NCBI GenBank assembly: GCA_038205305.1
Contig: JBBRBZ010000003.1
Span: 440 to 64,439 of the forward strand
DNA length: 64,000 bases
DNA from: Gemmatimonadales bacterium
GTDB lineage: Bacteria > Gemmatimonadota > Gemmatimonadetes > Gemmatimonadales > GWC2-71-9
Direction: 5' to 3'
The stretch's first letter is position 1, and each line of letters starts with the position of its first letter. Positions 8,745-63,474 of the stretch are shown one piece after another. The translations under genes and the position numbers were made by a program. The notes under the pieces were generated by a model. That model saw only the letters and a list, made by a program, of their open reading frames with translations, was not told the origin of the DNA and did no database searches.

Positions 8745-8828
8745 GGAGATTGGAGAACGGAGAACAGAGAACGGAGGGGCGATATGGTCCGCACCCCAAT
8801 CTCCGTTCTCCAATCTCCGTTCTCCGTT
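8745..8828. repeat. Inverted heptamer-array element, GGAGAAC type, 5+5 units
   Basis: Left arm 8745-8779 is GGAGATT GGAGAAC GGAGAAC AGAGAAC GGAGGGG. Right arm 8794-8828 is CCCCAAT CTCCGTT CTCCAAT CTCCGTT CTCCGTT. Lies between convergent stops at 8739 and 8829. Confidence 0.9.
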
Positions 8829-9191
8829 TCAGTCGTGCTCCTGCCACAGCTCCACCCGGTGTCCTTCCGGGTCGTCGATCCAGGCGAAGTCACCATCCGC
8901 CGTTTCCTGCCGCTTCTCCACTGACACGCCGAGCTCCCCCAGCTGCTCCACGAAGGCATCGAGATCCTTCACTCGCCAGGTGATGGCCACTTGGCGTCGG
9001 TCGTGCCCGAGTGGGTGCTTGCTCTGTTGGATCGAGAACGGGGTGCCCGGAAGATCGCACCACCATTCATGACTGTCCGGTTCCCTGGTGAAGAAGAGGC
9101 CGAGGTGCTTCTCATACCAATGCGCGAGTGCGTCGGCCTGATCCGCAAAAATGACAACGCCACCAATGCCTGCCACGGTCTGCCGCTCCAT
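8829..9191 (-). CDS. VOC (glyoxalase/bleomycin-resistance) family protein
   Basis: 120 aa. IGGVVIFADQADALAHWYEKHLGL ... DAFVEQLGELGVSVEKRQETADGDFAWIDDPEGHRVELWQ, a typical single VOC module. Confidence 0.8.
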   Translation of the reverse strand: MERQTVAGIGGVVIFADQADALAHWYEKHLGLFFTREPDSHEWWCDLPGTPFSIQQSKHPLGHDRRQVAITWRVKDLDAFVEQLGELGVSVEKRQETADGDFAWIDDPEGHRVELWQEHD

Positions 9192-9276
9192 TCATCAACT
9201 CCGGTGCTCGAGAAAAGGGATGAGGTCCAGCCTACCAGCCACGTCGGTTGCGTGCGCTGTCGGAAAGCCTTGGAGG

Positions 9277-10428
9277 CTACGATGGAACGGGCCGTCCCAC
9301 AACCCGAGCCCAGCCGTCGGGATCCGTCGCACCTTCGGTGGACCAGACCAAGACGCGGGGACGCGGCGGAAGTGTCAAGTGAGCCAGCACGGCCGCGTAC
9401 GCCGGATCGGCGTGCAACGCGAGCAAGCCGGCCACGCTCGCCGCCCCTGATTCGCCGGCAACGATCACCGGTTCACCCGCCTGCGGCGTTGCCAGACGTC
9501 GCATCGCCGACTCGGCCCAGTGATCCGGAATCGCCATCAGCGCATCGGCGCCGCGGACGATCACCTCCAGCGCGCTCGTGGACGGCCAGCCGCAGTTGAG
9601 GCCGGCCATGATGGTCTGGAGCGATCCACGCGCTCGAGTCGGTTCGCCCGCTAGAGCGGAGGCGAGCACGCAGTCTGCGGCCACCGGCTCGACCACCAGG
9701 ATGCGCGGGCGGGCCCGGCCGTAGCGGTGCCAAAGGTAGGAGATGATTGAGGCCGGCCAGGTTCCGACGCCGGCATGCAGCATCACCAGGTCCACTTGCG
9801 GGACCTGCGGCGTCAGGAGCGTGGCCTCGAGCTCTCGGGCATGGGTCCAGTAGCCCGCGGCAATCCACTCCGGAATCTCGAGGTATCCTGGCCGTGCCAT
9901 GTCCTGGATGAGCACCCATCCCGATCGGGCCGCCGCCTCGTGTGCCCTCGCGACTGCGGCATCATACCCCTCATCGACGATCACGACCTCTGCGCCTTCG
10001 CGTGCAATCGCGTCGAGACGCGCCGGCGCGGTATTCCCCGGCACGAAGATCACCGCTCGTGCGCCATGTCGTTTCGCGCTCCACGCCACGGCGCGGCCGT
10101 GATTGCCGTCGGTCGCCGTGGTAAACGTCGGATCCTGGGCATCCGGGTGGGTGCCAAGCCAGTGGGCGATCGCGAAGGAGGCGCCAAGCCCCTTGAAGGC
10201 GTTCAGCCCGAAGCGCGATGACTCGTCCTTGAGGTGCAGCGCAGCCAACCCCAATTCGGCGGCAAGGCTTGGCAGTGCATGAACCGAGGTGGGGTGGTAC
10301 TCGGGCAGCCGGCGGTGAAAGTCCCAGGCGGCATCGGCGAGCGCTGGCAGACGGACGAGGTCCGCTGGGGCCTGCGGCGCGCCGACCAGGTGGAACAGCG
10401 GCGTCACCGCGACGACTGGTCCTGCCAC
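9277..10428 (-). CDS. dpaL: Diaminopropionate ammonia-lyase (PLP-dependent, fold type II)
   Basis: LHLKDESSRFGLNAFKGLGASFAI (Lys-PLP region), TATDGNHGRAVAW, GVGTW; 383 aa. Pattern as in YgeX/DpaL. Confidence 0.8.
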   Translation of the reverse strand: MAGPVVAVTPLFHLVGAPQAPADLVRLPALADAAWDFHRRLPEYHPTSVHALPSLAAELGLAALHLKDESSRFGLNAFKGLGASFAIAHWLGTHPDAQDPTFTTATDGNHGRAVAWSAKRHGARAVIFVPGNTAPARLDAIAREGAEVVIVDEGYDAAVARAHEAAARSGWVLIQDMARPGYLEIPEWIAAGYWTHARELEATLLTPQVPQVDLVMLHAGVGTWPASIISYLWHRYGRARPRILVVEPVAADCVLASALAGEPTRARGSLQTIMAGLNCGWPSTSALEVIVRGADALMAIPDHWAESAMRRLATPQAGEPVIVAGESGAASVAGLLALHADPAYAAVLAHLTLPPRPRVLVWSTEGATDPDGWARVVGRPVPS

Positions 10429-10480
10429 GGGAGCACCCTTCGGGCGAAGCGTGGTCCGCTGGTGGTGACGTGCTGTCCAC

Positions 10481-11212
10481 TCACAGGGCGATCTGGATTC
10501 CCGACGTGAAGAGGCGATCGGTGTTGAGGTAGCCCGGCTGTGGCACGCCGTCGAAGCGGACGATGTAGGAGAGTTTGATGCCCACCTGCCTGGTCAGCGG
10601 CGCCAGCAGCGTCGACTCGGAGTTGATCCGGAGATCCTGGCTCTGATGGAAGTTCGGGAGGAATTCGATCGACTGGCTGACCGTCGCGCGCGGGCCGATG
10701 TGGTGCTGGTAGGCCGTTGCAGCCCGGCCACCCAGGAAGTCGAGATTGGAGCCCTTGGTGGTACTGACGGCACGTTGCGACGTCAGGGAGATGCCGCCCT
10801 CGACCACCAGATGGTCCTCCTTGGTCTTGATCACGTCAGCCGACAACCCGGTGACGCCCGAGGCCCGCGACGCCAACCCCGCGAAGACGTTCCGCTCGAA
10901 GGTCAGTGAGGTGTAAACCGCCAACGTTCTCGCGACAGCCGCATCAAGACGCACCGACCCACGCCAGGCGGAGGTCACCGTCTGTCCCTTGCTGCGTCCC
11001 TTGACCACCGAGAACTGCTGACTCACCGTCATCGTCCCCGTCTGAGCGGTGATCTTGTTGCCGAGATTGAGGGTCTGGACCGAGGTATTGCCGGAGGTCG
11101 CGACGTACCCCACATCGCCCGTGAACTTCACGTGCGTCGGCTTCGGGGGGGCCTTGACCGTGTCGGCGCCCACGAGGGAGAGGAGGAGGGGTAACGCCAC
11201 TGCCAGCATCAT
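10481..11212 (-). CDS. DUF481 outer-membrane beta-barrel protein (YdiY-like)
   Basis: Start at MMLAVALPLLLSLVGA (signal peptide). Alternating beta-strand pattern; C-terminus DRLFTSGIQIAL ends in an aromatic/aliphatic OMP-type signature. Confidence 0.7.
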   Translation of the reverse strand: MMLAVALPLLLSLVGADTVKAPPKPTHVKFTGDVGYVATSGNTSVQTLNLGNKITAQTGTMTVSQQFSVVKGRSKGQTVTSAWRGSVRLDAAVARTLAVYTSLTFERNVFAGLASRASGVTGLSADVIKTKEDHLVVEGGISLTSQRAVSTTKGSNLDFLGGRAATAYQHHIGPRATVSQSIEFLPNFHQSQDLRINSESTLLAPLTRQVGIKLSYIVRFDGVPQPGYLNTDRLFTSGIQIAL

Positions 11213-11307
11213 GTTGGGAAGTCTCCTGCCAGCCCGGAAACCGGACGGACGGCCAGGGTGTCCGCCCAAGCTAACCCACTGGGGAGGCTCGCGCCTACTG
11301 GGAGCGG

Positions 11308-12489
11308 TCACTCTGCTCGAGAGGAGGATAGTTGCTGCATCACCCGCTCGAGCGCGTCGGCATCCGGCACGGTCCCCTGCGCCACCTTGGGCGAGCCACC
11401 GCCACGCCCACCGACGGCCGCGAGGGCGGCCTTCAGGGCAGCACCGGCGTCGGTCCCGCTGTTGGCGCCGGTGGCGTAGTAGATCGTTGCCGGCGACGAT
11501 GTCGCCGCCAAGAGGATCACGCCATCGAGCGTCGCGGCGTGTTGCGCCATGGCGCGGAGCAGGGCGGCGGAGTCGGTGTCCGTACGATGGCTGACCCGCC
11601 GGACACCGTCGGCCGAGGGCACGACGCTCGCCACCAGCGCATTCACCCGCGACACCGCTACCTCACGCTCGAGCAGTTCGACCGCGCCGCGCAAGTTCTT
11701 CAGCTCCACCTGCCGCTTCGCCACGAGGTCGGGCAACTCGTTGACCGCACAGGACACCGACTCGGCAAGCGCGGCAAGTTCCTGCTCGTGTGCGTGCAGC
11801 CGTGCGAGCACCCGATTCCCTGCGAGAAAACCGACGCGCACATGCCCGCGAATCTTCTCGATGCCGTGGACCAGAATCGTGCCGATCGCGGCCGTCGATG
11901 CCACGTGCGTCCCGCCGCAGGCACTCCGGTCGAGGCCTGCGATGGTCACGACGCGGATCTCACCCGTGCGCGTCGGAGCCTTGCGCAACCCGCGCGCAAC
12001 GGCGGCATCAGCTTCCTCGAAGGAGAGCGTCACCGGCACCGCCGCCGCAATCGACGCATTCGCCGCCGACTCGAGTTCGCCCAGCGCACCCTCGCTCACG
12101 CTCGCGACGGCGAATTCGATGGTCGAATGTTCCTCGCCAAAATGCACGCTGGCGGTTTCCCAGCCGTAGGCATCGGCGGCGATCGCCGAGAGGAGATGTT
12201 GGGCGGTGTGCTGCTGCATATGATCGTGTCGACGCGCGGCGTTGATCTCGCCGTGCACCGCCCCGAGCGGGAGCGGCGCGTCGAGCAGATGAATGACACG
12301 CGCGTCGTCATCGATCACGTCGATGACGCGAACGCCGTTGAGTGTCCCGATATCATGCGGTTGCCCGCCCGAGGTGGGATAGAATGCACTTCGATCGAGG
12401 ACGACTTCGTGGTCGCTCGCTCCGTGCGAGACAGCCACGGCGTCGAACTCGAGCAACTCGGCATCGCGGTAGTAGAGTCGCTCGGTCAC
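11308..12489 (-). CDS. alaX: Alanyl-tRNA editing protein AlaX-L (AlaRS editing domain plus DHHA1-like C-terminus)
   Basis: MTERLYYRDAELLEFDA, zinc motif HDHMQQHTAQHLLS and CGGTHV, C-terminal GGRGGGSPKVAQG. Confidence 0.85.
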   Translation of the reverse strand: MTERLYYRDAELLEFDAVAVSHGASDHEVVLDRSAFYPTSGGQPHDIGTLNGVRVIDVIDDDARVIHLLDAPLPLGAVHGEINAARRHDHMQQHTAQHLLSAIAADAYGWETASVHFGEEHSTIEFAVASVSEGALGELESAANASIAAAVPVTLSFEEADAAVARGLRKAPTRTGEIRVVTIAGLDRSACGGTHVASTAAIGTILVHGIEKIRGHVRVGFLAGNRVLARLHAHEQELAALAESVSCAVNELPDLVAKRQVELKNLRGAVELLEREVAVSRVNALVASVVPSADGVRRVSHRTDTDSAALLRAMAQHAATLDGVILLAATSSPATIYYATGANSGTDAGAALKAALAAVGGRGGGSPKVAQGTVPDADALERVMQQLSSSRAE

Positions 12490-15473: not shown

Positions 15474-16223
15474 ATGTCCCGTCGAGCGCATGCTCGCGTC
15501 GCGCTGCTCACGGTCGCCCTCTGTGCGGCGTGTGCCGGCCATAGTTCCCGCCCCGCCGCGACCGCGGCCCCCGTGATTCCCGAACCAACCGGCCCAAACA
15601 CCATCACCTCCGCCGAGCGACGGTCGGGGTGGGACCTGCTGTTCGATGGTACCACACTCAACGGCTGGCATACCTACAAGCAGGCGCCTGGTATCACCAC
15701 CGGTTGGACGGTGCAGAACGGCACCATCACCCGCACCGCGTCGGCCGGCGATCTGGTGAGTGATCTCCAGTACGACTCCTTCGAGCTCGACTTGGAATGG
15801 AAGGTTGCTCCGGGAGCCAACAGCGGGGTCTTCTGGTGGGCGAATGAGGGGACCGACGAGGTCTACATGAACGCGCCTGAGATGCAGATTCTCGACAATC
15901 TCGGGCACGGTGACGGCAAGTCGCCGTTGACGGCCGCCGGATCGCTCTATGCCCTCTACCCCACCCGTCTTGACCTGGTGAAGCCGGTCGGCGAGTGGAA
16001 CAGCGCCAGCCTCGTGGTGCACGGCAGCAAGGTGCAGCAGTGGCTCAACGGGGTGAAGGTCGTCGACGTGAATTTCGATTCAAAGGAGATGAAGGAGAAG
16101 ATCGCGGCGAGCAAGTTCAAGGACTGGGATACGTTCGGCAAGGCACGACGGGGCCACATCGCTTTGCAGGAGCATGGCGGCAGCGTCTGGTTCCGCAACA
16201 TCAAACTGAAGGAGTTCCAGTGA
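15474..16223 (+). CDS. DUF1080 (3-keto-disaccharide hydrolase-like, concanavalin fold) protein, secreted
   Basis: Start at [22 protein letters not shown]. Motifs [43 protein letters not shown]. Confidence 0.8.
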
Positions 16224-17410
16224 GCGATCGCCTCAAGCTGCAGGTGATGATGTTTCTCCAGTATTTCATCTGGGGGAGCTGGTTCGTCACCATGGGTACC
16301 TATCTCTCGCAGACCCGGCAGTTCACTGGCGAGCAGGTCGGCTTGGCGTATGGCGCCACCGCGATCGCCGCGCTGGTCTCACCGTTCTTCCTGGGGATCA
16401 TCGCCGACCGGCTCTTCTCATCCGAAAAACTGCTGGCCGTCCTGCACCTGCTCGGCGCCGCGCTGATGTACCACCTCAGCACTCAGCAGACCTTCGGCAC
16501 TTTCTACCCGGTGCTGATTGGCTACGCGCTCTGCTACATGCCGACCCTTTCGCTCACCAACACCGTCGCCTTCCACCACGTCAGTGATCCGGGAAAGGAC
16601 TTTCCCATCATCCGCGTGCTCGGCACCATTGGCTGGATCGTCGCCGGCATCCTGATCGGCAAGGTGCTCCACGCCGACGCGCTGGCCACACCAATGCGCG
16701 TGGCGGCCGGTGCCTCGGTGGTGATGGGATTCTTCTCCCTCACCCTGCCGCACACCCCGCCCAAGGCTGCCGGAACTGCCTTTTCGGTGCGTGACGCCCT
16801 GGGCCTCGATGCACTGCAACTGCTCAAGGATCCTTCGTTCGCGATGTTTGCCCTGGGATCATTCCTGCTCTGCATTCCGTTGCAGTTCTACTACTCGTTC
16901 GCCAACCCCTTCCTGAACGAGATCGGCGTCAAGGACGCCGCCTTCATCCAGACCTTCGGCCAGATGTCCGAGTTCGTCTTCATGCTCGCACTGCCGTTCC
17001 TGCTCAAGCGCCTCGGCATCAAGTGGATCATGGTCGTGGGCATGGCGGCCTGGGCGGCGCGCTATTTCGCCTTCAGCGCCGGCAACGCCGGCAACATGAT
17101 GTGGCTCATCCTCATTGGCATCGTGCTCCATGGCGTCTGCTATGACTTCTTCTTCGTCAGCGGCCAGATCTACACCGACGAGCGCGCCGGCCCCAAGATC
17201 CGCGGTGCTGCCCAGGGCTTCCTCAACTTCCTCACCAATGGCGTCGGCTATTTCATTGGCGCCTTCGTGTCGGGGAAGGTTGTGGATGCCTACTTGATCT
17301 CCCCGGGACATCATGACTGGCACGCGATCTGGCTGGTGCCGGCCATTGGAGCGGCGGGGATTGCGCTGATCTTTGCCGCGGCGTTTCGGCCCAGGGCGAG
17401 CGTGGCGTGA
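16220..17410 (+). CDS. MFS transporter of the nucleoside:H+ symporter (NupG/XapB-like) family, substrate unknown
   Basis: GTG at 16220 overlaps the DUF1080 stop (GTGA). [29 protein letters not shown], 12 hydrophobic segments. Confidence 0.8.
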
Positions 17411-17417
17411 ACAAACA

Positions 17418-17462
17418 CCGAGAGCCGCGAGACGCTTGGTTCCTTGCCTCCTCGTCTCTCGG
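17418..17462. repeat. Short GAGAGAC-type inverted element (terminator-like hairpin)
   Basis: CCGAGAGCCGCGAGACG ... CCTCCTCGTCTCTCGG, beginning 8 nt after the MFS stop (17410). Confidence 0.6.
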
Positions 17463-21291: not shown

Positions 21292-21389
21292 GAGAGACGA
21301 GAGACGATAGACGAGAAACAAGGGGGGAATGGAAGAGAGTGCGTGTGCTGCGGCAAATTGCAGTTCGCCTCTCTCGCCTCTCGTCTCTC
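21292..21389. repeat. Inverted heptamer-array element, GAGAGAC type, 4+3 units
   Basis: Left arm 21292-21319 is GAGAGAC GAGAGAC GATAGAC GAGAAAC. Right arm 21368-21389 is CCTCTCTCGCCTCTCGTCTCTC. Lies between the stop at 21398 and the next start at 21276. Confidence 0.85.
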
Positions 21390-21397
21390 GGCTGTTG

Positions 21398-22018
21398 CTA
21401 TTTCACCAACCGATTCACCGCCGCTGCCGGGCATCCCTTCCACTCCGCCACGCCGGTGTTGCCCATGTACCCCACGTCCTTGATGCCGATCTTCGACGTA
21501 TAGAAACCGCTGGCGGTAAAGTCACGGAAGGAGTTGAACCAGTTCACACCGGCCATCAGTGCGCGCGGCGCCTTTGCGGGCCACGCGATGTCGTCGAGCA
21601 GCTGACGTCGCTGCGCGTCGGTGATGAGCGTGAAGAACTTGTTGTGCCGGTTGATGCTTTCGGTGTCGAGCCAGATCAGTCCGTTGCGGTGTCTGGTAAT
21701 CAATGGCGTATCGAGACCCAGCATCACGTCCATGAATTCCGGGACGCCAGCATCGGTGGCACTGCCGCTATGGCTGTCGCGCGGGATGATGTAGTCCACC
21801 AGCATCCGCACCGTCCCCCATTCCTGGGGTGTGAAGTTCTTCGGCTGGTACGCTACACCGCTCTCGGCAGCGGCGGTAATCGCTTGATGCGCCTGACGCA
21901 TTGCCTCACCAATATGCGGCGGGAGCAGGAAGGCGCCCGCAGCCATCGTCCCCATGGTGGAAAGCATGTCGCGCCGGCCCTGGTCCACGCCGGTCTCATC
22001 CTCGGAATGGTCGCTCAC
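21398..22018 (-). CDS. Gluconate 2-dehydrogenase subunit 3-family small subunit with Tat signal
   Basis: GTG (complement 22016-22018) overlaps the GMC stop (GTGA). Twin-arginine motif QGRRDMLSTMGTMAAGAFLL. Always paired with a GMC flavoprotein in this family. Confidence 0.75.
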   Translation of the reverse strand: MSDHSEDETGVDQGRRDMLSTMGTMAAGAFLLPPHIGEAMRQAHQAITAAAESGVAYQPKNFTPQEWGTVRMLVDYIIPRDSHSGSATDAGVPEFMDVMLGLDTPLITRHRNGLIWLDTESINRHNKFFTLITDAQRRQLLDDIAWPAKAPRALMAGVNWFNSFRDFTASGFYTSKIGIKDVGYMGNTGVAEWKGCPAAAVNRLVK

Positions 22019-23715
22019 AGTTGGCCCGCCTTCCGCTGATCGGTGATGTACTTGGAGGTGCGCATCGACAGGGCGAGAATCGTCCACGTCGGGTTCTTGT
22101 CTGCCTGCGTGACGAATGGGCCGCCATCAGCGACGAAGAGATTCTTGCAATCCCACGCTTGGCAATTCGCGTTGAGTACGCTGGTGCTCGGATTGTCGCC
22201 CATGCGGGCGCAGCCAACCTCGTGAATGATCGAACCGCCGGTGGAGATGCCGTAGCCGCGCTCCTTGGTCGGCATCGGGGAGCGGACTTCGGCTCCCATC
22301 TCCTGCAACAGGGCGCGGAAGGTCTCCTGCATATGCTTCACCTGCAGGTACTCGTGATCACTCCACTCCCAATGGAAGCGGAGGACCGGGATGCCGTAGA
22401 TGTCTTTCGCGTCGGGGTCGAGCTCGCAGTAGGACTTCTCGTTCGGGATCATCTCGCCGCGGCCGGAGAAGCCGATGTTGGCACCGTAGTACTTGCGGTA
22501 GTCGGCCTTGAGGCCGGCACCGTAGCCGCCACCGCCGGGGAGATTCTGGATGCCGCCCATGAAGCCGGCGCCAGGCATTCCCATGCCGCCATAGATTTCG
22601 ATGTGGTAGCCGCGCGGAAAGTCGAGCTTCTTGTTGTCGATCCACCATGGCATGTAAAGGTGCGCGCCACCCACGCCGTCGCAGTTGTGCCGCGGCTGGT
22701 CCATCAGCGCGGGCACGAAGCCGCCGACATCGGTGCCGGTCGTGTCGGTGAGATACTTGCCAACCATGCCGCTGGAATTGCCGAGCCCTTGGGGGAACTT
22801 CGCGGACTTGGAGTTGAGCAGGATCCGTGCAGATTCGCAGGCCGAGGCGGCCAGCACGACGATCTTGGCATCCACCCGCATCTCGTGACCGGTGGCCTTG
22901 TCGATGTAGATCACACCGTCGGCGAGCCCACGGTCGTTCAGCGTCACCTCGCGGACCATGGCGTTGGTGCGCAGCGTGAGCCGGCCGGTCTGGAGTGCTG
23001 GGTGCACCAGCACGTTGGTCGACGAGAAGTTGGCATTGATGCCGCAGCCGCGATTGCACTGGCCGCAGTAGTGGCACCCCGCGCGTCCATTGAGCGGCCG
23101 GGTGAGGATGCTGAGTCGGGACGGAATGCAGGTGACCTTCTGCTTGTCGGCCGCCTTCTTCACCAGATGTTCCCAGCAGCGCGGCTCCGGTGCGGGCAGG
23201 AAGATCCCGTCGGGATGGTTCCGCATCCCTTCCTTGCTGCCGAAAATCCCCACCAGTCGATCGACTTGGTCGTAGTAGGGCTTGATGTCGTCGTAGGAAA
23301 TCGGCCAGTTCTCGCCCAGGCCGTCGACCGATTTGTGCTTGAAATCATCGGGGCCGAAGCGGAGCGAGATGCGACCCCAGTGGTTGGTCCGTCCCCCGAG
23401 CATGCGCGCGCGCCACCATTGGAAGCGGCTTCCTGGAGCGGTCGTGAACGGCTCGCCAGGAAGGTTCCAGCCACCGATGCAGGCATCGAACTCGCCGAAC
23501 GGTCGCTCCGGGGAGCTGCCCCCGCGGCGATCCGTCTCGTAGGGCCACTTGAGCATGGCCGAGTCCTTGGTGTTGTCCCACATCCCACCGGCCTCGAGCA
23601 GCATCACCTTCGCGCCCGCCTTGGTGAGTTGATGGGCCGCCATGCCTCCGCCGGCCCCTGAGCCGACGATGCAGACGTCATAGATCTCGCGCCGCGCGCC
23701 CTTCAATGTCGACAT
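22015..23715 (-). CDS. GMC family FAD-dependent oxidoreductase (large subunit)
   Basis: Start at MSTLKGARREIYDVCIVGSGAGGGMAAHQLTKAGAKVMLLEAGG (FAD fold). C-terminal HEVGCARMG, NLFVADGGPF. Confidence 0.9.
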   Translation of the reverse strand: MSTLKGARREIYDVCIVGSGAGGGMAAHQLTKAGAKVMLLEAGGMWDNTKDSAMLKWPYETDRRGGSSPERPFGEFDACIGGWNLPGEPFTTAPGSRFQWWRARMLGGRTNHWGRISLRFGPDDFKHKSVDGLGENWPISYDDIKPYYDQVDRLVGIFGSKEGMRNHPDGIFLPAPEPRCWEHLVKKAADKQKVTCIPSRLSILTRPLNGRAGCHYCGQCNRGCGINANFSSTNVLVHPALQTGRLTLRTNAMVREVTLNDRGLADGVIYIDKATGHEMRVDAKIVVLAASACESARILLNSKSAKFPQGLGNSSGMVGKYLTDTTGTDVGGFVPALMDQPRHNCDGVGGAHLYMPWWIDNKKLDFPRGYHIEIYGGMGMPGAGFMGGIQNLPGGGGYGAGLKADYRKYYGANIGFSGRGEMIPNEKSYCELDPDAKDIYGIPVLRFHWEWSDHEYLQVKHMQETFRALLQEMGAEVRSPMPTKERGYGISTGGSIIHEVGCARMGDNPSTSVLNANCQAWDCKNLFVADGGPFVTQADKNPTWTILALSMRTSKYITDQRKAGQL

Positions 23716-23776: not shown

Positions 23777-23818
23777 GTCTCTCGTCTCTCGTCTCTCGTC
23801 TCTCGTCTCTCGTCTCTC
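23777..23818. repeat. Single-arm heptamer array (GTCTCTC)x6, perfect
   Basis: Six identical units counted directly and confirmed by the SRLSSLVSRLSSLV read-out in track ORF 23714..24694. Ends 3 nt from the stop at 23822. Confidence 0.95.
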
Positions 23819-23821
23819 GTC

Positions 23822-24658
23822 CTAGAATCGCAAATTGCTCAAATACTCATAACTCGCCTTGATACTCGTCAGTGGATCCGCCGGCGAGTCGTGCTCCACG
23901 AAGTAGTGCTTGATCCCCGCCTCCTTGTGCTTGGCAAAGATCTCCGCCCACTTGATGGTCCCCTTGCCGACGTCGCGCATCTGGTAGTCCGGCGGCGGCC
24001 CGGCGTCCTTCACGTGCACCATCGGGAAGCGCCCCGGCCATTTGGCAAAGTAGGCCAGCGGATCGCCGCCCCCCTTGGTGATCCAGTACAAGTCCATCTC
24101 GACCTGGAGCACGTCGGGAGAGGTCTCCTCCAGCAGCACATCGAAGACCCTGCGCCCCTCAACCAACCGGAACTCCGTTTCGTGGTTGTGGTAGGCGAGT
24201 TTGATCTTGTACATCTTGGCATCATCCGCCGCCTTGTGGATGATGTCGGCCGTCCGCTTGATGGCCTCGATCGAGTTGCGGTCGGCATCATCGAGCGAGG
24301 CGATCACCAGCCACTTGTGGCCCACCTCGGCGGCGTCATTGAGCGTCCTGTTCCAGGCACCCCGGATTTCCCGCATCCCCAGGTGGGCCGCCGGCGACTT
24401 CATCCCGTTGCGGTCGAGCAGCTGGCGGATGGCCCGGGGAGGCCGGTTGAAGTACCCGGCGAACTCGACCTCTTTGTACCCGATGTCGGCGACCTCGGCG
24501 AGCGTCTTCTCGACGCTCACCTGCATCAGGTCGCGCACGGTGTAGAGCTGCACCCCGATCTTCTTGATCTTGTCCTGCGCGTAGAGGTCGTTGCCGAGGG
24601 GGAGCAGCGAGGCGACCCCCGCGGCACCAAGGGCACCAACAAAGCTTCGACGATCCAT
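23822..24658 (-). CDS. Sugar phosphate isomerase/epimerase (xylose isomerase-like TIM barrel) with Tat signal
   Basis: Start at MDRRSFVGALGAAGVASLLPLG (twin-arginine). Motifs IGVQLYTVRD, GYKEVEFAG, LAYHNHETEF, QVEMDLYW. Confidence 0.85.
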   Translation of the reverse strand: MDRRSFVGALGAAGVASLLPLGNDLYAQDKIKKIGVQLYTVRDLMQVSVEKTLAEVADIGYKEVEFAGYFNRPPRAIRQLLDRNGMKSPAAHLGMREIRGAWNRTLNDAAEVGHKWLVIASLDDADRNSIEAIKRTADIIHKAADDAKMYKIKLAYHNHETEFRLVEGRRVFDVLLEETSPDVLQVEMDLYWITKGGGDPLAYFAKWPGRFPMVHVKDAGPPPDYQMRDVGKGTIKWAEIFAKHKEAGIKHYFVEHDSPADPLTSIKASYEYLSNLRF

Positions 24659-24869
24659 GGCAAACTCCTTGGACACGGGGGACGCGGGTCGTGACACTCG
24701 GGGTGCGGTCGCGCGGATCCGTGGAACGATTGGCGATGATTGAATGTGCCGCCGTTGGCGCCGGAGGGCAACGATGATCCGCCCTGTCGCCGCAATCCGC
24801 TTTCCAAGCGGAGTCCTGCCTGTCATGAGCACCATGGCGTGTCACCTGTACCCACCGGTTGAGGCAAAG

Positions 24870-31615: not shown

Positions 31616-31654
31616 GGGTACGTCCTTGTGGAGGTCCGTCCTCGCCCCTCGCTT

Positions 31655-31675
31655 CTCCGTTCTCCGTTCTCCGTT
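31655..31675. repeat. Single-arm heptamer array (CTCCGTT)x3
   Basis: Three perfect units ending 3 nt before the Nif3-like stop (31679). Confidence 0.85.
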
Positions 31676-39413: not shown

Positions 39414-39417
39414 CGAG

Positions 39418-40748
39418 TCATCCGATCATCGTTTCGAGCTCGGCTCGCACCAGTGTCTCCAGCCTCTCGCGGATGCCCGCATCCGTGATCTCGGCCAGCA
39501 CCTCGGCCGTGAAGGCCCAGATCAGCAGACCCTCTGCGACTCGACCGGCGATCCCGCGGGTCTTGAGATAGTAGCGCTGCTGTTCGTCCACCTTGCCGAT
39601 CGTGGCGCCGTGGGTGCAACGAACATCATCGGCAAAGATTTCGAGTTGGGGTTTGGTGTCGACCTTCGCGGTGTCGGAGAGGAGCAGGTTTCGGTTGGTC
39701 TGCTTCGCGTCGGTCTTCTGCGCGATGGGCTGCACAATGACCTTGCCGTTGAACACGGCGTGCGCGCGATCGGTCAGGACGCCCTTGTACACTTCCCACG
39801 AATTGCCGTTGGGCTGATCGTGGAAGATGGCGGTGTGGTTGTCGAGCAGTTGCTCGTCGCGGCCGAGGTAGAGCCCGTACAGGAGCGTCTCGACGTTCTC
39901 GGCACTGAGTCGGGCGCGAAGGTCGTGTCGCGAGAGCTTGGCACCAAGCGCCAGGGTAAAGGAGCGGTAGTGCGAATCGCGCTGCTGGGAAACCTCGGTG
40001 AGTCCGATGTGCCAGGCCGCCTTCGCCTCGCGCTGGACTCGGAGATGCTCGAAGCGCGCGTTGGCGCCGAGAACGATCTCGGTGACGCCATTGGTGAAGT
40101 AGTGCGTCCCACCGATGGCCGCGAAACTCTCCACCACCGACGCCCGCGCGCCACCATCGAGAAGGAAGAGGTTGCGGGGCGCGAGCAGCGCCGAGCCGCC
40201 GGTGCTGACATTGAGCAGTTGGATCGGCGAGTCGATGGCGGTGTTCGCCGGGAGGTGGAGAAAGAGGCCATCGGTGAAGAGGGCGCCGTTCAGCGCCACG
40301 AACGGGGTTGTCTCGATCGCGGCGTGTTGTCCAAGCTGAGCCTCCACCTCGGGCACACCCTCGGCGATCGCCGCCGCGAGCGACATCAGGCGCGCGCCAG
40401 CGGGAAGCAACGGGATGCGCGACAGCGCGGGATTGAAGCGACCATCCACCAGCACGATGAGCGCACTGCGTTCATCGCCGAGGAGGAACGGCTTCAGCGC
40501 CTCGGCCGTGACGCCGCCCGAAACCATGGCGGTCGCGAACGATTCGCGGGCGAGCCCGAGCACCGGTGTAAAGCGCCAATCCTCGTCACGCGAGGTGGGC
40601 AGACCCACCACGGCATATCGCTGCGCCGCCCGACGCCGAAACCCCGCCAGCCACTCCGGCGCCGCGCCCCGCGCGCGTTCGGCCATGAAGTCGGCGAACG
40701 GCACCGACGGCTGGTCGTTGCCGACGCGAGTGGGCATGGTGGCCGTGG

Positions 40749-40752
<4 letters not shown>
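39418..40752 (-). CDS. sufD: Fe-S cluster assembly protein SufD
   Basis: Start at MTTATMPTR; the ATG overlaps the sufC stop (ATGA). C-terminal beta-helix motifs NGKVIVQPIAQKTDAKQTNRNLLLSD, PQLEIFADDVRCTHGATIG, YYLKTRGI. Confidence 0.9.
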
Positions 40753-41516
<764 letters not shown>

Positions 41517-41534
41517 TGATTCAGTTCCTTTAAT

Positions 41535-41603
41535 GGAGAACAGAGAACAGAGAACGGAGAACGGATGGTCCGGGTCGCCCCGTTCTCCGTTCTCCGTTCT
41601 CCG

Positions 41604-41607
<4 letters not shown>
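41535..41607. repeat. Inverted heptamer-array element, GGAGAAC type, about 5+4 units, between sufB and sufC
   Basis: Left arm is GGAGAAC AGAGAAC AGAGAAC GGAGAAC GGATGGT. Loop is about 10 nt. Right arm is CCGTTCT x3 then CCGTCAT, whose TCA is the complement of the sufB stop codon. Confidence 0.9.
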
Positions 41608-43033
<1,426 letters not shown>

Positions 43034-43037
<4 letters not shown>

Positions 43038-43717
43038 TGGTCCTCCCCGGCCGTCGGCGACGTCGGAACGAGATAACTGCAGGTGCCGCAACCATCGGCG
43101 ATGCGGGACTGCCGTGCCACCGGCCCGCGAAAAACCTGGATGAGGAAGCTCTCCTCGGCGGCACAGATTTCCGGAAACCGCTCGGCGACGAGCTGATGGG
43201 GGCAGTTGTGCTCCGTGAGCATCCCGCCGCTCTCCGCCCCCGACCACGTGGCCATGTACCCCTCGGCGGCCAGCATCCGGGCCACCGCCTCGCCCCGGCG
43301 TGCGGGCGGGAGGTGCGCCGTCTCGGCGACGATCCGCTGCTGGAGGGCCCGGTAGTGACTCTCGAGGAGGGAAACGGCCATGGCGCGGCCCTGACTTGCC
43401 ACCACGTGGTCGAGGAGGTCAGCTACGGTCTGCTCGTAGCGGTCGGGGAAGAGGGCCTGGCCTTCCGGGGAGAGTCGCCAGGCATGGGACGGCGCCCCGA
43501 CCCCGTGGTGGGTCCGGTCGAAAGTAACTACGCCGTCGGCCTCTAACTCCTTGATATGATGGCGGATAGCTGTGATGGAGTAGCCCAGTGCCACGGCCAG
43601 TTCCCGCACGGTTGCCTTCCCTTCCCGCTTCAGGTGAAGCAGTAACTCGGCACGCGGCCCCCGGTGTCCAGCTGGGGCAGCGAAATCGTCGTGGCGGGAA
43701 TGCGGTAAGGCGTGCAT
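43034..43717 (-). CDS. sufR: SufR-like winged-helix transcriptional regulator with C-terminal Cys cluster
   Basis: HTH region [32 protein letters not shown]. Four C-terminal cysteines (NCPH, EICAAE, DGCGTC). First gene of the suf operon. Confidence 0.7.
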
Positions 43718-48566: not shown

Positions 48567-48869
48567 GTGGTGATTTCGGCGGAACTGGCGCGCAAGGCGC
48601 TCCGAGCAGTGAAAGACCCGGAACTCGGCCTGAATGTCATCGACATCGGGCTGATCTACGATATCGACGTCGACGAGGCTGGGGTGGTGCACGTCAAGAT
48701 GACGCTGACCTCACCGGGTTGCCCGTCGAGCGGCGAGATCATGGATGATATTCGTCAGACACTCGCCGACCTCGAAGGGGTGACGTCGGTTGATCTGGAG
48801 CTGGTGTGGGAGCCGTACTGGACGCCGGAGAAGATGGATCCAAGGGTACGGGCGTTTCTGGGGCATTAG
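48567..48869 (+). CDS. DUF59 / SufT-like metal-sulfur cluster assembly factor
   Basis: GTG at 48567 after GGGGGAGGGAA. VKDPELGLNVIDIGLIYDI, MTLTSPGCPSSGEI, VWEPYWTPEKM. Confidence 0.85.
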   Translation: MVISAELARKALRAVKDPELGLNVIDIGLIYDIDVDEAGVVHVKMTLTSPGCPSSGEIMDDIRQTLADLEGVTSVDLELVWEPYWTPEKMDPRVRAFLGH

Positions 48870-48908
48870 AGACGAGAGACGAGAGACGAGAGACGAGAGA
48901 CGAGAGAC
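48867..48908. repeat. Single-arm heptamer array TAGAGAC + (GAGAGAC)x5
   Basis: The first unit contains the TAG stop of the DUF59 gene. Exact reverse complement of the 23777-23818 array units. Confidence 0.95.
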
Positions 48909-48940
48909 GCGGGAAGCTACCAACTGCGTCGAAGGCTCAA

Positions 48941-48968
48941 GGGTGACCCGCGGAGGGTCGCCCTTTTT
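48941..48968 (+). terminator. Intrinsic terminator
   Basis: GGGTGACCC-GCGGA-GGGTCGCCC (9 bp with one G.U pair) followed by TTTTT. Lies between convergent genes ending at 48869 and 48973. Confidence 0.75.
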
Positions 48969-48972
48969 CACT

Positions 48973-51054: not shown

Positions 51055-53404
<2,350 letters not shown>

Positions 53405-58630: not shown

Positions 58631-59419
58631 ATGCCTGCGGCCCATGACGCGCTCGTGGCGCTGCTCAAGCAGCGCTCGGTGAAGTTCGGCGATTTCACCC
58701 TCGCCTCCGGCGCCAAGTCCGACTGGTACATCGATTGTCGCCTCACCACCATGTCAGCACAGGGCCAGCACTTGATCGGCCGCATTGGTCTCGAGGCGAT
58801 CTTGGCGGCGCAGTGGTCGCCGCGCAGCGTCGGCGGGCTCACCATGGGCGCCGATCCGGTGAGCTACGCCATCGCGGCGGCGAGCGCGGGGCGCCACATC
58901 GATCCGATCGATGCCTTCTCGGTGCGCAAGGAAGCGAAGCAGCATGGCACCGGCCGACGCATCGAGGGGAACTTCGCCGCCGGTGACGCGGTGGTGGTGA
59001 TCGAAGATGTGATCACCTCGGGCGCCTCGGCCCTGCTGGCCATCGACGCCGTGCGCCACGAGGGCGGCACGGTCATCGGTGTGCTGGCGGTGGTCGATCG
59101 CGAGGCGGGTGGCGTGGAGAAGATCGAAGCCGCCGGGGTGCCGGTCGTCGCGCTCGTGAAGGCGAGTGAGCTTCGAGCACCGTGTTGGGGGGGGCGACGA
59201 ATGCGTCGCCCCCGCCATGCACGTGCCTCCTCGCCCCTCCGTTCTCCGTCATCCCCTCCCCGGCGCCAACGGCCGGAACTGCCGCCACAACTGGACATGC
59301 GGGCGCACGAATCGCGACAGAAATCGATCGAGCACCATCGAGAAAGGAAAGCGCGCCCGGAATTCACTCGGCGTGATTCCCAACACCACGCGCAGGTGTC
59401 GACCGAACGATTGTGGTGA
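58631..59419 (+). CDS. pyrE: Orotate phosphoribosyltransferase; 3' boundary doubtful
   Basis: FGDFTLASGAKSDWYIDCR, PRPP loop VVVIEDVITSGAS. The conserved part ends near 59175. The ORF continues about 80 codons (Arg/Pro-rich) into the convergent regulator gene before the first stop. Confidence 0.8.
   Translation: MPAAHDALVALLKQRSVKFGDFTLASGAKSDWYIDCRLTTMSAQGQHLIGRIGLEAILAAQWSPRSVGGLTMGADPVSYAIAAASAGRHIDPIDAFSVRKEAKQHGTGRRIEGNFAAGDAVVVIEDVITSGASALLAIDAVRHEGGTVIGVLAVVDREAGGVEKIEAAGVPVVALVKASELRAPCWGGRRMRRPRHARASSPLRSPSSPPRRQRPELPPQLDMRAHESRQKSIEHHRERKARPEFTRRDSQHHAQVSTERLW
59237..59250. repeat. Two-unit heptamer remnant (CTCCGTT CTCCGTC)
   Basis: Same CCGTTCTCCGTCATCCC string as at the sufB stop (41594-41610). 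The TCA is the complement of the regulator stop codon. Confidence 0.6.
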
Positions 59420-60221: not shown

Positions 60222-60607
60222 CGGGTTGGACGCGATGATCGCGGTCCTGGGCGCGAGCCCGGGGTCGAGGAAAGTCCGAGCTCCACAGGGCAGATCGCCA
60301 GGTAACGCCTGGGCACCGCAAGGTGACGGACAGGGCAACAGAGAACAGACCGCCGATGGCCCGGCGCGCAAGCAACGGGATCAGGCAAGGGTGAAACGGT
60401 GGGGTAAGAGCCCACCGCCTCTCATGTAAGTGAGGGGGCACGGCAACCCCCGGTCGGAGCAAGGCCAAATAGGCGGCAAGGTGCGGCCCGCACCGTCTGA
60501 GCCGCGGGTAGGCTGCTCGAGGCCGTCGGCGACGACGGTCCCAGACAGATGATCATCTCCCAAGCCTCACGGCGAGGGAAACAAAACTCGGCTTACGGTC
60601 CGACCCG
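60222..60607 (+). ncRNA. rnpB: RNase P RNA, bacterial type A
   Basis: Near-identical to universally conserved blocks: GAGGAAAGTCCGAGCTCCACAGGGCAG, CCAGGTAACGCCTGGG, ACAGAGAACAGACCGCCGATGGCC, GATCAGGCAAGGGTGAAACGGTGGGGTAAGAGCCCACCG, GGAGCAAGGCCAAATAGG, GGTAGGCTGCT, ACAAAACTCGGCTTAC. Ends set by P1 pairing CGGGTTGGAC / GTCCGACCCG. Confidence 0.95.
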
Positions 60608-60642
60608 CGCGCCCCTCGATGCCTCTGGCCTCGAGGGGCGCG
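60608..60642 (+). terminator. Hairpin immediately after rnpB
   Basis: CGCGCCCCTCGA-11 nt loop-TCGAGGGGCGCG, a perfect 12-bp stem, followed by ATTGTGTGG. Confidence 0.65.
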
Positions 60643-61588: not shown

Positions 61589-61698
61589 CGTCGCCCGGCC
61601 CCCATCCGCCCGCCACCGGTCGCGAGACCAGTGGCGGGTTGGTGTTTCCAGGCGATGCCTCGTTCGTCGTGTTGTTGCACCCTGCAGCGGCGGAGCCT

Positions 61699-62553
61699 AT
61701 GCGGTTCTTGGACCTGAAGTGCTCACCACGAAAGCTGTTGGCCCTCACCTTCGGCACACTGCTGGCTGCCTGCGGCGGAAAGCCACCAGTCACCACCCCG
61801 ACGCCAACGACATCCCGGGCCGCCACAGTCAGGATGGCGATGGGCTGGAGCGCCGCCGTGACGCTCAGTCGCAACGACTCGATCGTGCTGACCATGCCGG
61901 GCAACGAGACACAGCTGCAGCAGACCAGCCGCCGGGCCGCCTTCACCCTGACGGTGGATCAGCGCGGTGGGATGACGCTTCGGCTCGACTCCCTCAGTCT
62001 GGTCCCTTTTCCGGAGCGGGCCTCCATCCCGATGGTTGGAACGGTCTGGACCGGGCGGATGCTGGGCAACCGGGTGGAGTGGTACGCGACCGCCGGGGCC
62101 GGGCCAGTGATCGAGAATCTGACGACTGACATCGCCGGTTTCTTCCCCCATTTGCCGGCTGGCGGAGTCAGCCCCTCCTCCCGCTGGAGCGATACATCGA
62201 CATCGCGGGGCAGGGTAGACATCTTCGAGACCAGCGAGCGTTCCACGGCGAACTGGGTTGCCGGGGCCGACACGCTAATTTTGGGGCAGCCGGGACTGTT
62301 GATCACGGAGGAGCGCTCGCTGGAACAGTCCGGCAAGGGCGCAGAGGGGAGCATGACGATGTCGATGACAGGACAGGGCGTTCGTAGTAACACATACTAC
62401 CTAAGGACAAGCGGGGAAATTTCCTCGGTAACCCGTCGTGACTCGATGGCCGTGCTGATCAGCGTCCCCGCGTCGCACCAGCTCGTCCCCACGACCCGGT
62501 TCATCCGGAGCAAGGTGGTCTTTTCGCCGATGATGCGTGGCCGCACTCCGTAA
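61699..62553 (+). CDS. Hypothetical lipoprotein
   Basis: Start at MRFLDLKCSPRKLLALTFGTLLAACGG (lipobox) with GGAG upstream. Loosely similar layout to the preceding gene. Confidence 0.6.
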   Translation: MRFLDLKCSPRKLLALTFGTLLAACGGKPPVTTPTPTTSRAATVRMAMGWSAAVTLSRNDSIVLTMPGNETQLQQTSRRAAFTLTVDQRGGMTLRLDSLSLVPFPERASIPMVGTVWTGRMLGNRVEWYATAGAGPVIENLTTDIAGFFPHLPAGGVSPSSRWSDTSTSRGRVDIFETSERSTANWVAGADTLILGQPGLLITEERSLEQSGKGAEGSMTMSMTGQGVRSNTYYLRTSGEISSVTRRDSMAVLISVPASHQLVPTTRFIRSKVVFSPMMRGRTP

Positions 62554-63355
62554 GAAACGGAGCCTGCTGCGAAAGCTCCTCCTCGGCCTGGTGTTGGCGG
62601 TGGGGCTCTTCGTCATCTGGCTTTTCGCGGTCTGGCCCCCGCCACTCTGGTATCGCTTTGCCTTCCCCCACGAGACGGCGTTCATGGCGATGCGGCGCCA
62701 CGAGGACCCGCTCGCGGCCACCAAGCGGCGCTACCAGCCGGTCCCGATGGAGCAAATCGCCCCGGCGCTGACGCGGGCCGTGATGATCGGCGAGGACAAT
62801 CGCTTCTACGACCACGGCGTCTTCGACTGGGTGGAAGTCCGCCATGCCATGGGATATCCGCGCGATTCCTTCGCCTGGGGCAGTGCCCGGGATCGCGGCG
62901 AGCTCTGGCGAAGCTACCGGCGCACCATGGCGGGCAAGAAGCCAATGCGCGGCGCCAGCACGCTCACCCAGCAGCTCGCGAAGAACCTCTACCTCTCCCC
63001 CTCCCGGAACCCGCTCCGCAAGGTCAAGGAGGCGTTCACCGCCTGGCGGCTCGAGCTCTGGCTCCCCAAGGACCGGATCATGGCGCTCTACCTCAACACC
63101 GCCGAGATGGGCAACGAGGTGTGGGGGGCAGAGGCGGCGAGCCGACTCTATTTTGGGAAGGGTGCGCGCGCGCTCTCCTCAGAAGAGGCGGCGACCTTGG
63201 CTGGCCTGCTGCCATTTCCGCGGAGTAGTAATCCCAACTACCGACCAGGAAGAATGGCTTGGCGGCGGGATCTGATTTACCAACGGATGACGGGGAGGAG
63301 TGTAGAGGTACCTGTGGATACTACTAGCATTGTGGGGGCGGACAGCCTCAGGTGA
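62537..63355 (+). CDS. mtgA: Monofunctional peptidoglycan glycosyltransferase (GT51)
   Basis: GTG start, N-terminal TM anchor. GT51 motifs IGEDNRFYDHGVFDW, GASTLTQQLAKNLYL, RKVKEAFTAWRLE, ILALYLN-type MALYLNTAEMG. Confidence 0.9.
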   Translation: MAALRKKRSLLRKLLLGLVLAVGLFVIWLFAVWPPPLWYRFAFPHETAFMAMRRHEDPLAATKRRYQPVPMEQIAPALTRAVMIGEDNRFYDHGVFDWVEVRHAMGYPRDSFAWGSARDRGELWRSYRRTMAGKKPMRGASTLTQQLAKNLYLSPSRNPLRKVKEAFTAWRLELWLPKDRIMALYLNTAEMGNEVWGAEAASRLYFGKGARALSSEEAATLAGLLPFPRSSNPNYRPGRMAWRRDLIYQRMTGRSVEVPVDTTSIVGADSLR

Positions 63356-63474
63356 ACGGTGAACGGTGAACGGTGAACGGTGAACGGAACCGAGAACGAA
63401 GTCGGCTGAAGGGTAAAAGGAAGGGGCCATCTTTCTGGCCCCCACCGTTCTCCAATCTCCGTTCTCTGTTCTCC
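63351..63474. repeat. Inverted heptamer-array element with GGTGAAC-type left arm and GTTCTCC-type right arm
   Basis: Left arm is (GGTGAAC)x5 at 63351-63385, decaying to GGAACCGAGAACGAAG. Central perfect 7-bp hairpin GGGGCCA/TGGCCCC at 63423-63442. Right arm 63443-63474 is CACCGTT CTCCAAT CTCCGTT CTCTGTT CTCC. Confidence 0.9.

Follow-up and report, generated by a model that had tools for sequence, protein, structure and literature searches.

What are the runs of head-to-tail 7-bp units that lie between the genes of a 64,000-nucleotide stretch of DNA from a Gemmatimonadales soil bacterium, and do they do anything for the genes that they adjoin? The stretch (assembly GCA_038205305.1, contig JBBRBZ010000003.1, positions 440 to 64,439 of the forward strand) was analysed at its full length and is called the window below; coordinates count from its first letter, and + and - denote its strands. 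The original prediction, made from the letters of the window, had listed twelve loci with arrays of GGAGAAC, GAGAGAC or GGTGAAC units and had matched them to no described repeat class. Tandem Repeats Finder (TRF) recovered period-7 arrays at all twelve positions, with 2-12 head-to-tail 7-bp units per array; the earlier unit counts, made by eye, held to within one unit, and the three unit flavours read as described. A period-specific run detector returned 13 runs of period 7 in the window, one of period 6 and none of periods 4, 5 or 8-12, whereas first-order Markov versions of the window, simulated 100 times, contained 0.01 period-7 runs on average and one at most, so that a density far above chance, as had been claimed, was borne out. 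A relaxed scan of the window (at least two units of the three flavours; weak period-7 runs) produced no extra locus and the list of twelve is therefore complete. The observation is thus confirmed as real, complete and far above chance.

GGAGAAC was present at eight loci, GAGAGAC at four and GGTGAAC at one. The arrays reach a density of 20 runs per 100 kb, and about one quarter of the gene ends in the window have one. Only about 5% of the window is left outside the gene models (about 95% coverage), and the arrays fall almost wholly there. The earlier view of the arrays as non-coding consequently stands for nearly all of them, but not for two, since the open reading frames (ORFs) of an MMPL transporter and of NifU/SufU read into theirs.

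With high confidence, the arrays are a heptanucleotide simple sequence repeat (SSR), of the same kind as the short tandemly repeated repetitive (STRR) sequences of cyanobacteria and the GGGAATC repeats of Xanthomonas. As to their role, we favour, with a probability of about 0.5, a composite explanation in which slippage would build register-tolerant stem-loops that mark the ends of transcripts.

Arm anatomy, stop codons and predicted hairpins

At every gene-end arm in the window, the purine-rich strand was the sense strand of the adjoining gene, and the distance between arm and stop codon ranged from -5 to +12 nt. The stop codon was often itself the first, T-substituted unit of the array, as in GTAGAAC before (GGAGAAC)5 and TAGAGAC before (GAGAGAC)6; GGTGAAC units carry their own TGA, and at sufB as well as at the HTH_18 gene GGAGAAC comes directly behind GGATGAC. 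At its far end the purine arm passes into GGAGGGG or GGGGC, where a short GC-rich core hairpin begins; the complementary arm lies on the other side of this core, leaving GGGG...CCCC between the arms. The geometry in which the purine-rich arm always comes first held in all eight two-armed loci. Since the arrangement is palindromic, a purine arm that comes first on one strand also comes first on the other, and this arises because each arm starts, purine strand first, at the neighbouring ORF.

The stable, slippage-tolerant hairpins that had been proposed were supported by folding: six two-armed elements gave -46 to -63 kcal/mol with z scores of -4 to -8, and single arms gave about -1 to -2 kcal/mol, which means that they are unstructured. 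No T-run followed either arm at any of the seven two-armed loci checked, so these elements fall outside the definition of an intrinsic terminator.

Three two-armed elements occupy convergent junctions. The first combines a purine arm at 8745-8776 (+; GGAGATT/GGAGAAC/AGAGAAC), which begins 5 nt past the TAG stop of a RidA-like gene (8188-8739), with a complementary arm at 8796-8828 (-; (GGAGAAC/GGAGATT)n on that strand) that abuts the TGA stop of a glyoxalase gene (8829-9191); folding of the whole element gives -49.4 kcal/mol (z -7.1). The second, between the MMPL gene and polA, has its purine arm, (GGAGAAC)4.7, at 53295-53329 (+), within the last 17 codons of the MMPL ORF (end at 53346), and its complementary arm at 53378-53404 (-), abutting the TAG stop of polA (53405); its fold reaches -62.6 kcal/mol (z -6.4). 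At the third, the purine arm (GGTGAAC)5 at 63351-63387 (+) holds the TGA stop of a transglycosylase gene within its first unit, and the complementary arm at 63445-63474 (-; GGAGAAC/AGAGAAC/GGAGATT on that strand) starts 4 nt past the TAA stop of an M28 peptidase gene; the arms flank the core hairpin GGGGCCA-TCTTTC-TGGCCCC, and the element folds at -59.2 kcal/mol (z -4.0). The rare variant GGAGATT alternates with GGAGAAC as a 14-nt super-unit in the arms at 8745-8828 and 63445-63474, which are 55 kb apart, and this sharing hints at copying or gene conversion between the two loci. The variant was met once more, in an unrelated locus (L043) from a metagenome-assembled genome.

Two-armed elements also stand between co-directional genes, at 17418, 21292, 37698 and 41535. 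A short degenerate hairpin of the GAGAGAC type at 17418-17462 (+) begins 7 nt past the TGA stop of a nucleoside symporter gene (15995-17410) and lies upstream of cutC (-21.7 kcal/mol, z -3.1). Between two - strand genes, a distal arm of four GAGAGAC units on the + strand (21292-21319) is paired with a proximal arm at 21365-21390, purine-rich on the - strand, which starts 8 nt past the TAG stop of a gluconate-dehydrogenase subunit gene (21398-22087); this element folds at -46.2 kcal/mol (z -4.2). The element that follows the last gene of the suf operon (-54.1 kcal/mol, z -6.4) consists of six AGAGAAC units on the + strand at 37698-37740 as the distal arm and a proximal arm at 37764-37791 (-) that lies within the last 11 codons of the NifU/SufU ORF (end at 37758). 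In the sufB-sufC intercistronic element (-49.4 kcal/mol, z -8.0), the distal arm is at 41535-41565 (+) and the proximal arm at 41580-41604 (-), where the TGA stop of sufB is contained in the unit-like GGATGAC and is followed by (GGAGAAC)3.

The largest array, of 12 units (34244-34333, +; GGAGAAC, AGAGGAC, then four GGAGGGC), is placed about 70 nt upstream of the start of parA (34171, - strand) and is pyrimidine-rich in the sense of parA. It is the distal partner of the (GGAGAAC)6 arm at 34554-34595 (-), whose first unit, GTAGAAC, provides the TAG stop of an ABC-2 permease gene (34594-35910), with a spacer of 220 nt between the two.

The remaining four loci are single arms. At 23777-23821 (-), (GAGAGAC)6.4 starts 0-3 nt past the TAG stop of the gene at 23822-24835 and leaves 22 nt to the ATG of a GMC oxidoreductase gene; it is unstructured (-1.3 kcal/mol), as is (GGAGAAC)3 at 31653-31675 (-), 3 nt past the TAG stop of the NIF3 gene (31679-32650). 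(GAGAGAC)6 at 48867-48909 (+) begins with TAGAGAC, the TAG stop of a FeS-assembly gene, and is followed by a canonical terminator with hairpin and U-tract that ends about 6 nt before the stop of a convergent beta-lactamase gene (48973). The locus at 59237-59250 (-) holds two units only: the TGA stop of the HTH_18 (AraC-type) gene lies in GGATGAC, after which come GGAGAAC and GGAGGGG.

Where ORFs overlap arrays, the predicted proteins gain tails of the ENGERRTE type, by 17 codons of array in MMPL and 11 codons in NifU/SufU. The predicted C-termini of MMPL (...KENGERRTENGDPRSER before the stop, 53290-53346, +) and SufU (37758-37795, -) are array-encoded. Arrays thus shift predicted stops and add protein tails that look like artefacts; gain or loss of units would alter the tails of MMPL and SufU, and gene callers will report lineage-specific extensions.

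Relatives and other lineages

The comparison set consisted of the polA region of the three nearest relatives and 80 polA-selected metagenome loci that had not been picked for repeats. PolA of the window is 94%, 87% and 86% identical to its three nearest metagenomic homologues and 68-78% identical to many proteins labelled Gemmatimonadales or Gemmatimonadota by their sources. Relatives carry arrays at orthologous junctions, with the variation in unit number that the original prediction had proposed to look for. At the convergent polA-MMPL junction at least eight different units were found, each with a matching complementary arm; those of many Gemmatimonadota relatives included GGTGAAC/GGTGATT, GGTGATC/GATGATC, GACGTGA, GTGAAAC, CGAGTAG/CGAAGAG, GCGGTGA and GTCAGGG, and further relatives had either no element or a plain hairpin there. 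In the three closest relatives the units (GGTGAAC/GGTGATT, GGTGATC/GATGATC) form a one-step mutational series from GGAGAAC. The stop of the orthologous HTH_18 gene is the same codon in three genomes, followed by GGAGAAC, (GAGAGAC)3 or (GAGAAGG)4, and behind the FeS-assembly gene the (GAGAGAC)6 of the window corresponds to (GAGAGAA)n in the relative with the 94%-identical PolA. Two near-identical contigs (L130 and L131) had 4 and 5 units, respectively, between flanks that were 99.7-100% identical, and a (GCAGTAA)n(GCAGAAG)m series after polA likewise varied in length; such whole-unit copy variation was seen in the relatives, as distinct from the window genome itself. Taken together, these sequences show that arrays gain and lose units while period, position and arm complementarity persist, and they suggest that the unit drifts and re-homogenises. 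What the relatives add is that units turn over fast at individual junctions whose period, position and complementarity stay the same, that the stop codon is often the first array unit, and that the same rules apply in unrelated lineages.

In the polA-selected loci, period-7 runs numbered 6.7 per 100 kb in Gemmatimonadota relatives and 5.2 per 100 kb in a lineage whose PolA is about 48% identical, and other periods did not exceed 2 per 100 kb. A period-7 signal was present within 70 nt after 27 of 81 polA stops, compared with one case each for periods 5 and 9. In the distant lineage (PolA ~48%), the polA stop codon itself lies within (GCAGTAG/GCAGTAA/GCAGAAG)n arrays of variable length. Loci with the polA stop in arrays of the GCAGTAG type were L155, L159, L164, L165, L169, L170, L172, L175-L179, L181, L184 and L186. 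PolA of this soil lineage ends in ...DAKKQ, versus ...DAKH in array-free relatives, and from these sequences the array seems to have contributed the last PolA codons.

Orientation was counted for 272 arrays over all fetched loci. Paired arrays were purine-then-pyrimidine in 66 cases and the reverse in 14; single arms touching a sense-strand stop were purine-rich in 52 cases and pyrimidine-rich in 12, and arms farther from the stop leaned the opposite way, 59 to 32. Gene ends defined crudely by long ORFs gave a weak cross-phylum stop bias, which became clear once single arrays were separated from paired ones. Both the period-7 excess and the purine-first rule hold in unrelated lineages and phyla too.

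Exact (GGAGAAC)3 was found in many phyla among the matches listed, and those loci hold many arrays of other units. The unbiased polA-selected loci, with about 5-7 heptamer arrays per 100 kb and many different units, contained no exact GGAGAAC array. When arrays are this common, one shared unit is not evidence of a universal motif; we therefore rejected GGAGAAC as a universal motif or a horizontally spread unit, and the cross-phylum matches are uninterpretable. In viral contigs, (GGAGAAC)3 gave 8 matches versus 5 for a composition-matched control; a period-6 control gave more than 120 matches and a period-8 control one, and the abundant hexamers are probably coding repeats.

A different repeat was noticed in L117, whose PolA is 83% identical over its C-terminal region (399-aa query). 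Two copies of a palindromic GGGCGCAGCATGCTGCGCCC element with conserved flanks, reminiscent of repetitive extragenic palindromic (REP) elements, follow polA at 11198-11340. Elsewhere on this contig, CGAGAAG heptamer arrays occupy three further loci.

A known repeat kind and its possible role

The claim that the arrays belong to no described repeat class did not survive: stop-codon proximity and inverted pairs match published heptanucleotide repeats (PMC4692102), and since both the class and its main positional rules are in print, the central claim of novelty fails. Heptanucleotide repeats were described in Calothrix in 1990 (Mazel 1990, as cited in PMC4692102 and PMC4679880); heptanucleotides are given as the most abundant class of long SSRs in most prokaryotic genomes, with the length contacted by DNA polymerase as a suggested origin of the 7 nt (Mrazek 2007, as cited in PMC4679880). 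The window shares with heptanucleotide SSRs and STRRs the head-to-tail 7-bp units, a period of 7 far in excess of neighbouring periods, many dispersed and mostly intergenic loci, few genome-specific units and a patchy occurrence across phyla; whole-unit variation was seen in relatives. It differs in its phylum, its units and its high density. No report of heptamer arrays in Gemmatimonadota, or of GGAGAAC, GAGAGAC or GGTGAAC units, was found in the searched literature. What is new here is a dense example of a known, mechanistically unexplained kind of repeat in a little-studied phylum without a prior report.

The closest published description is that of the GGGAATC / GGGGAYT repeats of Xanthomonas and Nostoc (Rehm et al. 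2015, PMC4692102), in which the G-rich strand lies on the coding strand, at most 50 bp from the stop or overlapping it, the nearer ORF is on the 5' side whatever its orientation, inverted pairs occur between convergent genes, most copies are transcribed, and no link to gene function or mobile elements was seen. The arrays of the window show the same positional traits, with the G-rich strand in sense at the stop and convergent pairs at 8745, 53295 and 63351. The Rehm units, however, contain GGG tracts, prefer four copies and form G-quadruplexes in vitro (PMC4692102), whereas the main units here lack a GGG tract and cannot do so, only (GGAGGGC)4 at 34290-34321 being suitable. That block (+ strand) reads G3N4G3N4G3N4G3, the canonical G-quadruplex motif, antisense to parA and about 120-150 nt upstream of its start, and it is the sole array block with this potential in the window.

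TAACTGA direct repeats of marine Beggiatoaceae, some Cyanobacteria and Bacteroidetes (MacGregor 2015, PMC4679880) resemble the present arrays as genome-wide intergenic heptamers in 2-6 copies, with one unit in distant phyla and no evident mobilising gene; they mostly lie a few bases upstream of starts and are inverted in 1 of 170 cases, in contrast to the stop-abutting, often inverted pairs seen here. Geobacter metallireducens carries four copies of GGGACCG at 49 sites and MTYCTGA at 5 sites (PMC2700814); these are likewise genome-specific tandem heptamers at tens of loci and are annotated as putative global regulatory elements, but some are inside genes and their relation to stop codons was not reported. 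A preprint on Nostoc describes heptamer repeats near recF and recO with regulatory effects and postulates a binding protein.

REP elements and bacterial interspersed mosaic elements (BIMEs) are similar in being intergenic, often intercistronic, stable stem-loops of 3' untranslated regions (UTRs) that can protect upstream mRNA and attenuate read-through; REPs, however, are conserved imperfect palindromes of 20-40 nt linked to REP-associated tyrosine transposases (RAYT), whereas the repeated unit here is a 7-mer and the central parts of the elements are unrelated. The elements also differ from miniature inverted-repeat transposable elements (MITEs), as their cores vary in length and sequence, they are flanked by the stops of different genes without duplication and single arms exist, and they differ from CRISPR arrays in that the units are 7 nt long and contiguous. 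Hairpin terminators without a U-tract ('I-shaped') have been described for high-GC Actinobacteria. They too are GC-rich stem-loops right after stops, with no U-run, in a high-GC genome, but they are ordinary unique hairpins, whereas the stems here are lengthened by repeats and always have a purine-rich 5' arm.

In the explanation that we favour, arrays would arise and grow by slipped-strand replication, drift and then re-homogenise, and the complementarity of the arms would be kept by template switching, gene conversion and/or selection. A transcript from either flanking gene would carry, in this order, the stop codon, (GGAGAAC)n, the core hairpin and (GUUCUCC)n. The two-armed stem-loop may then mark transcript ends in both directions by stopping read-through and/or 3' exonucleases, in a manner likened to that of REP/BIME or of hairpin terminators without a U-tract. 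RNA:DNA hybrids are weaker with a pyrimidine-rich RNA strand than with a purine-rich one; a (GUUCUCC)n 3' arm would favour hairpin invasion and release in both directions, and its weak hybrid would explain the fixed purine-first geometry. A ribosome positioned on the stop codon would mask the 5' arm over its first one or two units. Single purine arms would be unstructured half-elements, tolerated beside stops because the read-through tail is short and hydrophilic and a purine-to-T change makes a stop. Hairpins formed by accident from each convergent gene's own 3' arm are insufficient as an explanation, given the co-directional cases at sufB-sufC, 21292 and 37698. Three-frame stop codons also fail as the purpose of the arrays, for the main units contain no T.

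Several points weigh against this explanation. The elements have no U-tract and a canonical terminator occurs elsewhere in the window, so in principle they are not needed for termination. Complete termination would do harm at the very stable element that separates sufB from sufC within the suf operon, and four of the twelve loci are single unstructured arms to which the hairpin model gives no function. No reading or published model accounts for why 7 bases should be so sharply preferred to 6 or 8. Nor does any of the readings account for one unit at eight loci of this genome, for which in-situ slippage is insufficient without gene conversion between loci or selection. Any function of the arrays at the level of RNA is something that we infer from sequence and regard as rather doubtful. 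Were the elements indeed bidirectional terminators or insulators without a U-tract, they would offer simple modular parts for high-GC hosts. The striking pattern bears on an old open question, although the window alone does not render that question newly testable. Independently of function, the arrays lend themselves, as natural variable-number markers, to the typing of strains among uncultured Gemmatimonadota.

The main rival, possible though on balance unlikely, is that the ordered appearance is a non-adaptive by-product without function, in which a 7-bp slippage bias seeds arrays wherever they are tolerated, arms are copied by template switching (quasipalindrome correction), and purifying selection clears arrays with a harmful effect on translation. 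Behind a stop, a pyrimidine-rich array would yield long hydrophobic tails without an easy stop, and a purine-rich, start-prone or ribosome-binding-like array before a start would misinitiate. This would fit the fast turnover of unit sequence and number, the many array-free relatives (only 27 of the 81 polA stops have an array), the harmless hydrophilic tails where arrays overlap ORF ends and an orientation bias that is strong only in arms touching an ORF boundary; the published idea of 7 nt as a polymerase contact length (Mrazek 2007, as cited in PMC4679880) and the lack of a tie to gene function or expression changes in Rehm et al. (PMC4692102) point the same way. On the other side, arrays stand at about one quarter of gene ends though only 5% of the window is non-coding, arms remained complementary across at least eight independent unit changes, and the same unit, even the variant GGAGATT, recurs at distant loci. 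This density, the kept complementarity and the recurring units suggest selection or an active homogenising process.

A further, more novel reading would be a cross-phylum, directional gene-boundary system in which a lineage-variable trans-acting factor, and not passive slippage, installs, homogenises or reads the arrays throughout the genome. It could be an enzyme that adds repeats from a template, a nucleic-acid-binding protein specific for heptads, or a process dedicated to gene conversion. The idea is prompted by the fixed period of 7, the purine strand starting at the ORF boundary, often at the stop codon, and the complementary arms, as well as by a dominant unit that is common within a genome and yet replaced between relatives with 86-94%-identical PolA; we nevertheless judge it distinctly unlikely.

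We hold it very unlikely that the arrays are directional insulators read by Rho, which prefers C-rich, G-poor unstructured RNA. Transcripts running towards a gene would contain (GUUCUCC)n and load Rho, cutting off antisense and read-through transcription, and a polymerase leaving the gene would make G/A-rich RNA that Rho ignores. The composition agrees, since the gene-leaving strand of every unit type has one C and at least three G and the opposite strand is C-rich and G-poor, and so does an orientation rule that is obeyed at either end of genes, upstream of parA as well as after stops. In two-armed elements, however, the C-rich arm is paired and so out of Rho's reach. Cyanobacteria are not known to have Rho. 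The orientation rule of Rehm et al. (PMC4692102), which holds irrespective of ORF orientation as a Rho-read insulator would have it, was reported for Nostoc, a cyanobacterium, and this counts against Rho.

The chances are remote that the arrays serve as multivalent sites for a trans-acting factor, be it through GGAG units pairing with the anti-Shine-Dalgarno end of 16S rRNA and so retaining ribosomes or 30S subunits on 3' UTRs, or through a cold-shock, S1, CsrA or HutP-like protein that binds RNA or DNA and reads the heptad unit typical of its genome. Each genome is dominated by a small number of units (GGAGAAC at eight loci here, CGAGAAG at three in L117), the dominant units differ among relatives as co-evolution with a reader would give, and GGAGAAC contains both GGAG and the CsrA-like core ACGGA; moreover, S1, Csp or CsrA have been proposed for the TAACTGA repeats (MacGregor, PMC4679880), and the Nostoc preprint, with its regulatory effects and postulated binding protein, is in line with such a factor. 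The original prediction had placed GGAG in each purine unit and had drawn a Shine-Dalgarno/anti-Shine-Dalgarno connection from it; the former proved wrong and the latter is not supported: three units coexist in the window and only the GGAGAAC flavour has GGAG, which is missing from GAGAGAC and GGTGAAC and from most junction units of relatives (GGTGATC, GACGTGA, GTGAAAC, CGAAGAG, GCAGTAG). Orthologous junctions in relatives use units without a common motif, purine units are buried in the stem of two-armed elements, little Shine-Dalgarno signal could be seen by eye upstream of parA, the GMC oxidoreductase gene and sufC, and in viral contigs (GGAGAAC)3 was no commoner than the composition-matched control. 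Reading of a CsrA, Hfq or HutP-type motif was rejected because it suits GGAGAAC only and not the other units.

Finally, it is barely credible that a transposase or RAYT encoded elsewhere in the genome spreads the two-armed loci as MITE- or REP-like, non-autonomous mobile elements, since their inverted-repeat architecture and many dispersed copies with the same arm sequence in one genome are outweighed by the unrelated cores and the units that mutate in place at orthologous sites, as opposed to presence or absence of a block, on which grounds a MITE or REP identity was rejected, by differing arm lengths and unit orders, by the existence of single arms, by the lack of association with mobile elements in Rehm et al. 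(PMC4692102) and by a Pfam scan of the ~58 window ORFs that detected no transposase or RAYT domain, as had been stated before, and no reverse transcriptase domain.

Neighbouring genes and minor observations

The window has a G+C content of about 65%, and the Pfam content of its ~58 ORFs is housekeeping only, including polA, the MMPL transporter, sufBCDSU and parAB as well as peptidases, oxidoreductases and a Ser/Thr kinase. The window lacks tRNA genes. No Rfam family matched the arrays at gathering score; the sole match in the window was a full-length bacterial class A RNase P RNA at 60222-60611 (+), with 275 bits.

The suf operon is complete (37758-43717, -), with sufB at 41604-43247, sufC at 40749-41516, sufD at 39418-40785, sufS at 38205-39413 and sufU/nifU at 37758-38204, and with a winged-helix regulator gene upstream at 43034-43717. 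It carries one heptamer hairpin of -49 kcal/mol between sufB and sufC and another after sufU.

The 420-nt spacer at 34172-34593, from the ABC-2 permease gene to parA-parB, contains the two largest arrays, which flank a relatively AT-rich stretch of 220 nt. ParA (33374-34171) and ParB (32490-33377) are both encoded on the - strand, and a TATTAT box lies about 45 nt before the parA ATG; the spacer may be the promoter region of parA, perhaps with a replication-related part.

The terminator 3' of the 48867 array extends over 48935-48970 and reads GGGTGACCC...GGGTCGCCC followed by TTTTT. A second hairpin with a T-run and the shape of a terminator, with a 15-bp stem, was seen at 6971-7004. Terminator-like patterns in the first 20 kb numbered 8, versus 8.6 in shuffles, and were thus not in excess.

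A phosphoribosyltransferase-like ORF at 58631-59419 (+) encodes 262 aa, compared with 183-189 aa in relatives L111 and L109. Its Arg/Pro-rich tail crosses the array at 59237, with an overlap of about 170 nt with the convergent HTH_18 gene, and the extra length could reflect a lost stop codon, a frameshift or a start called too early.

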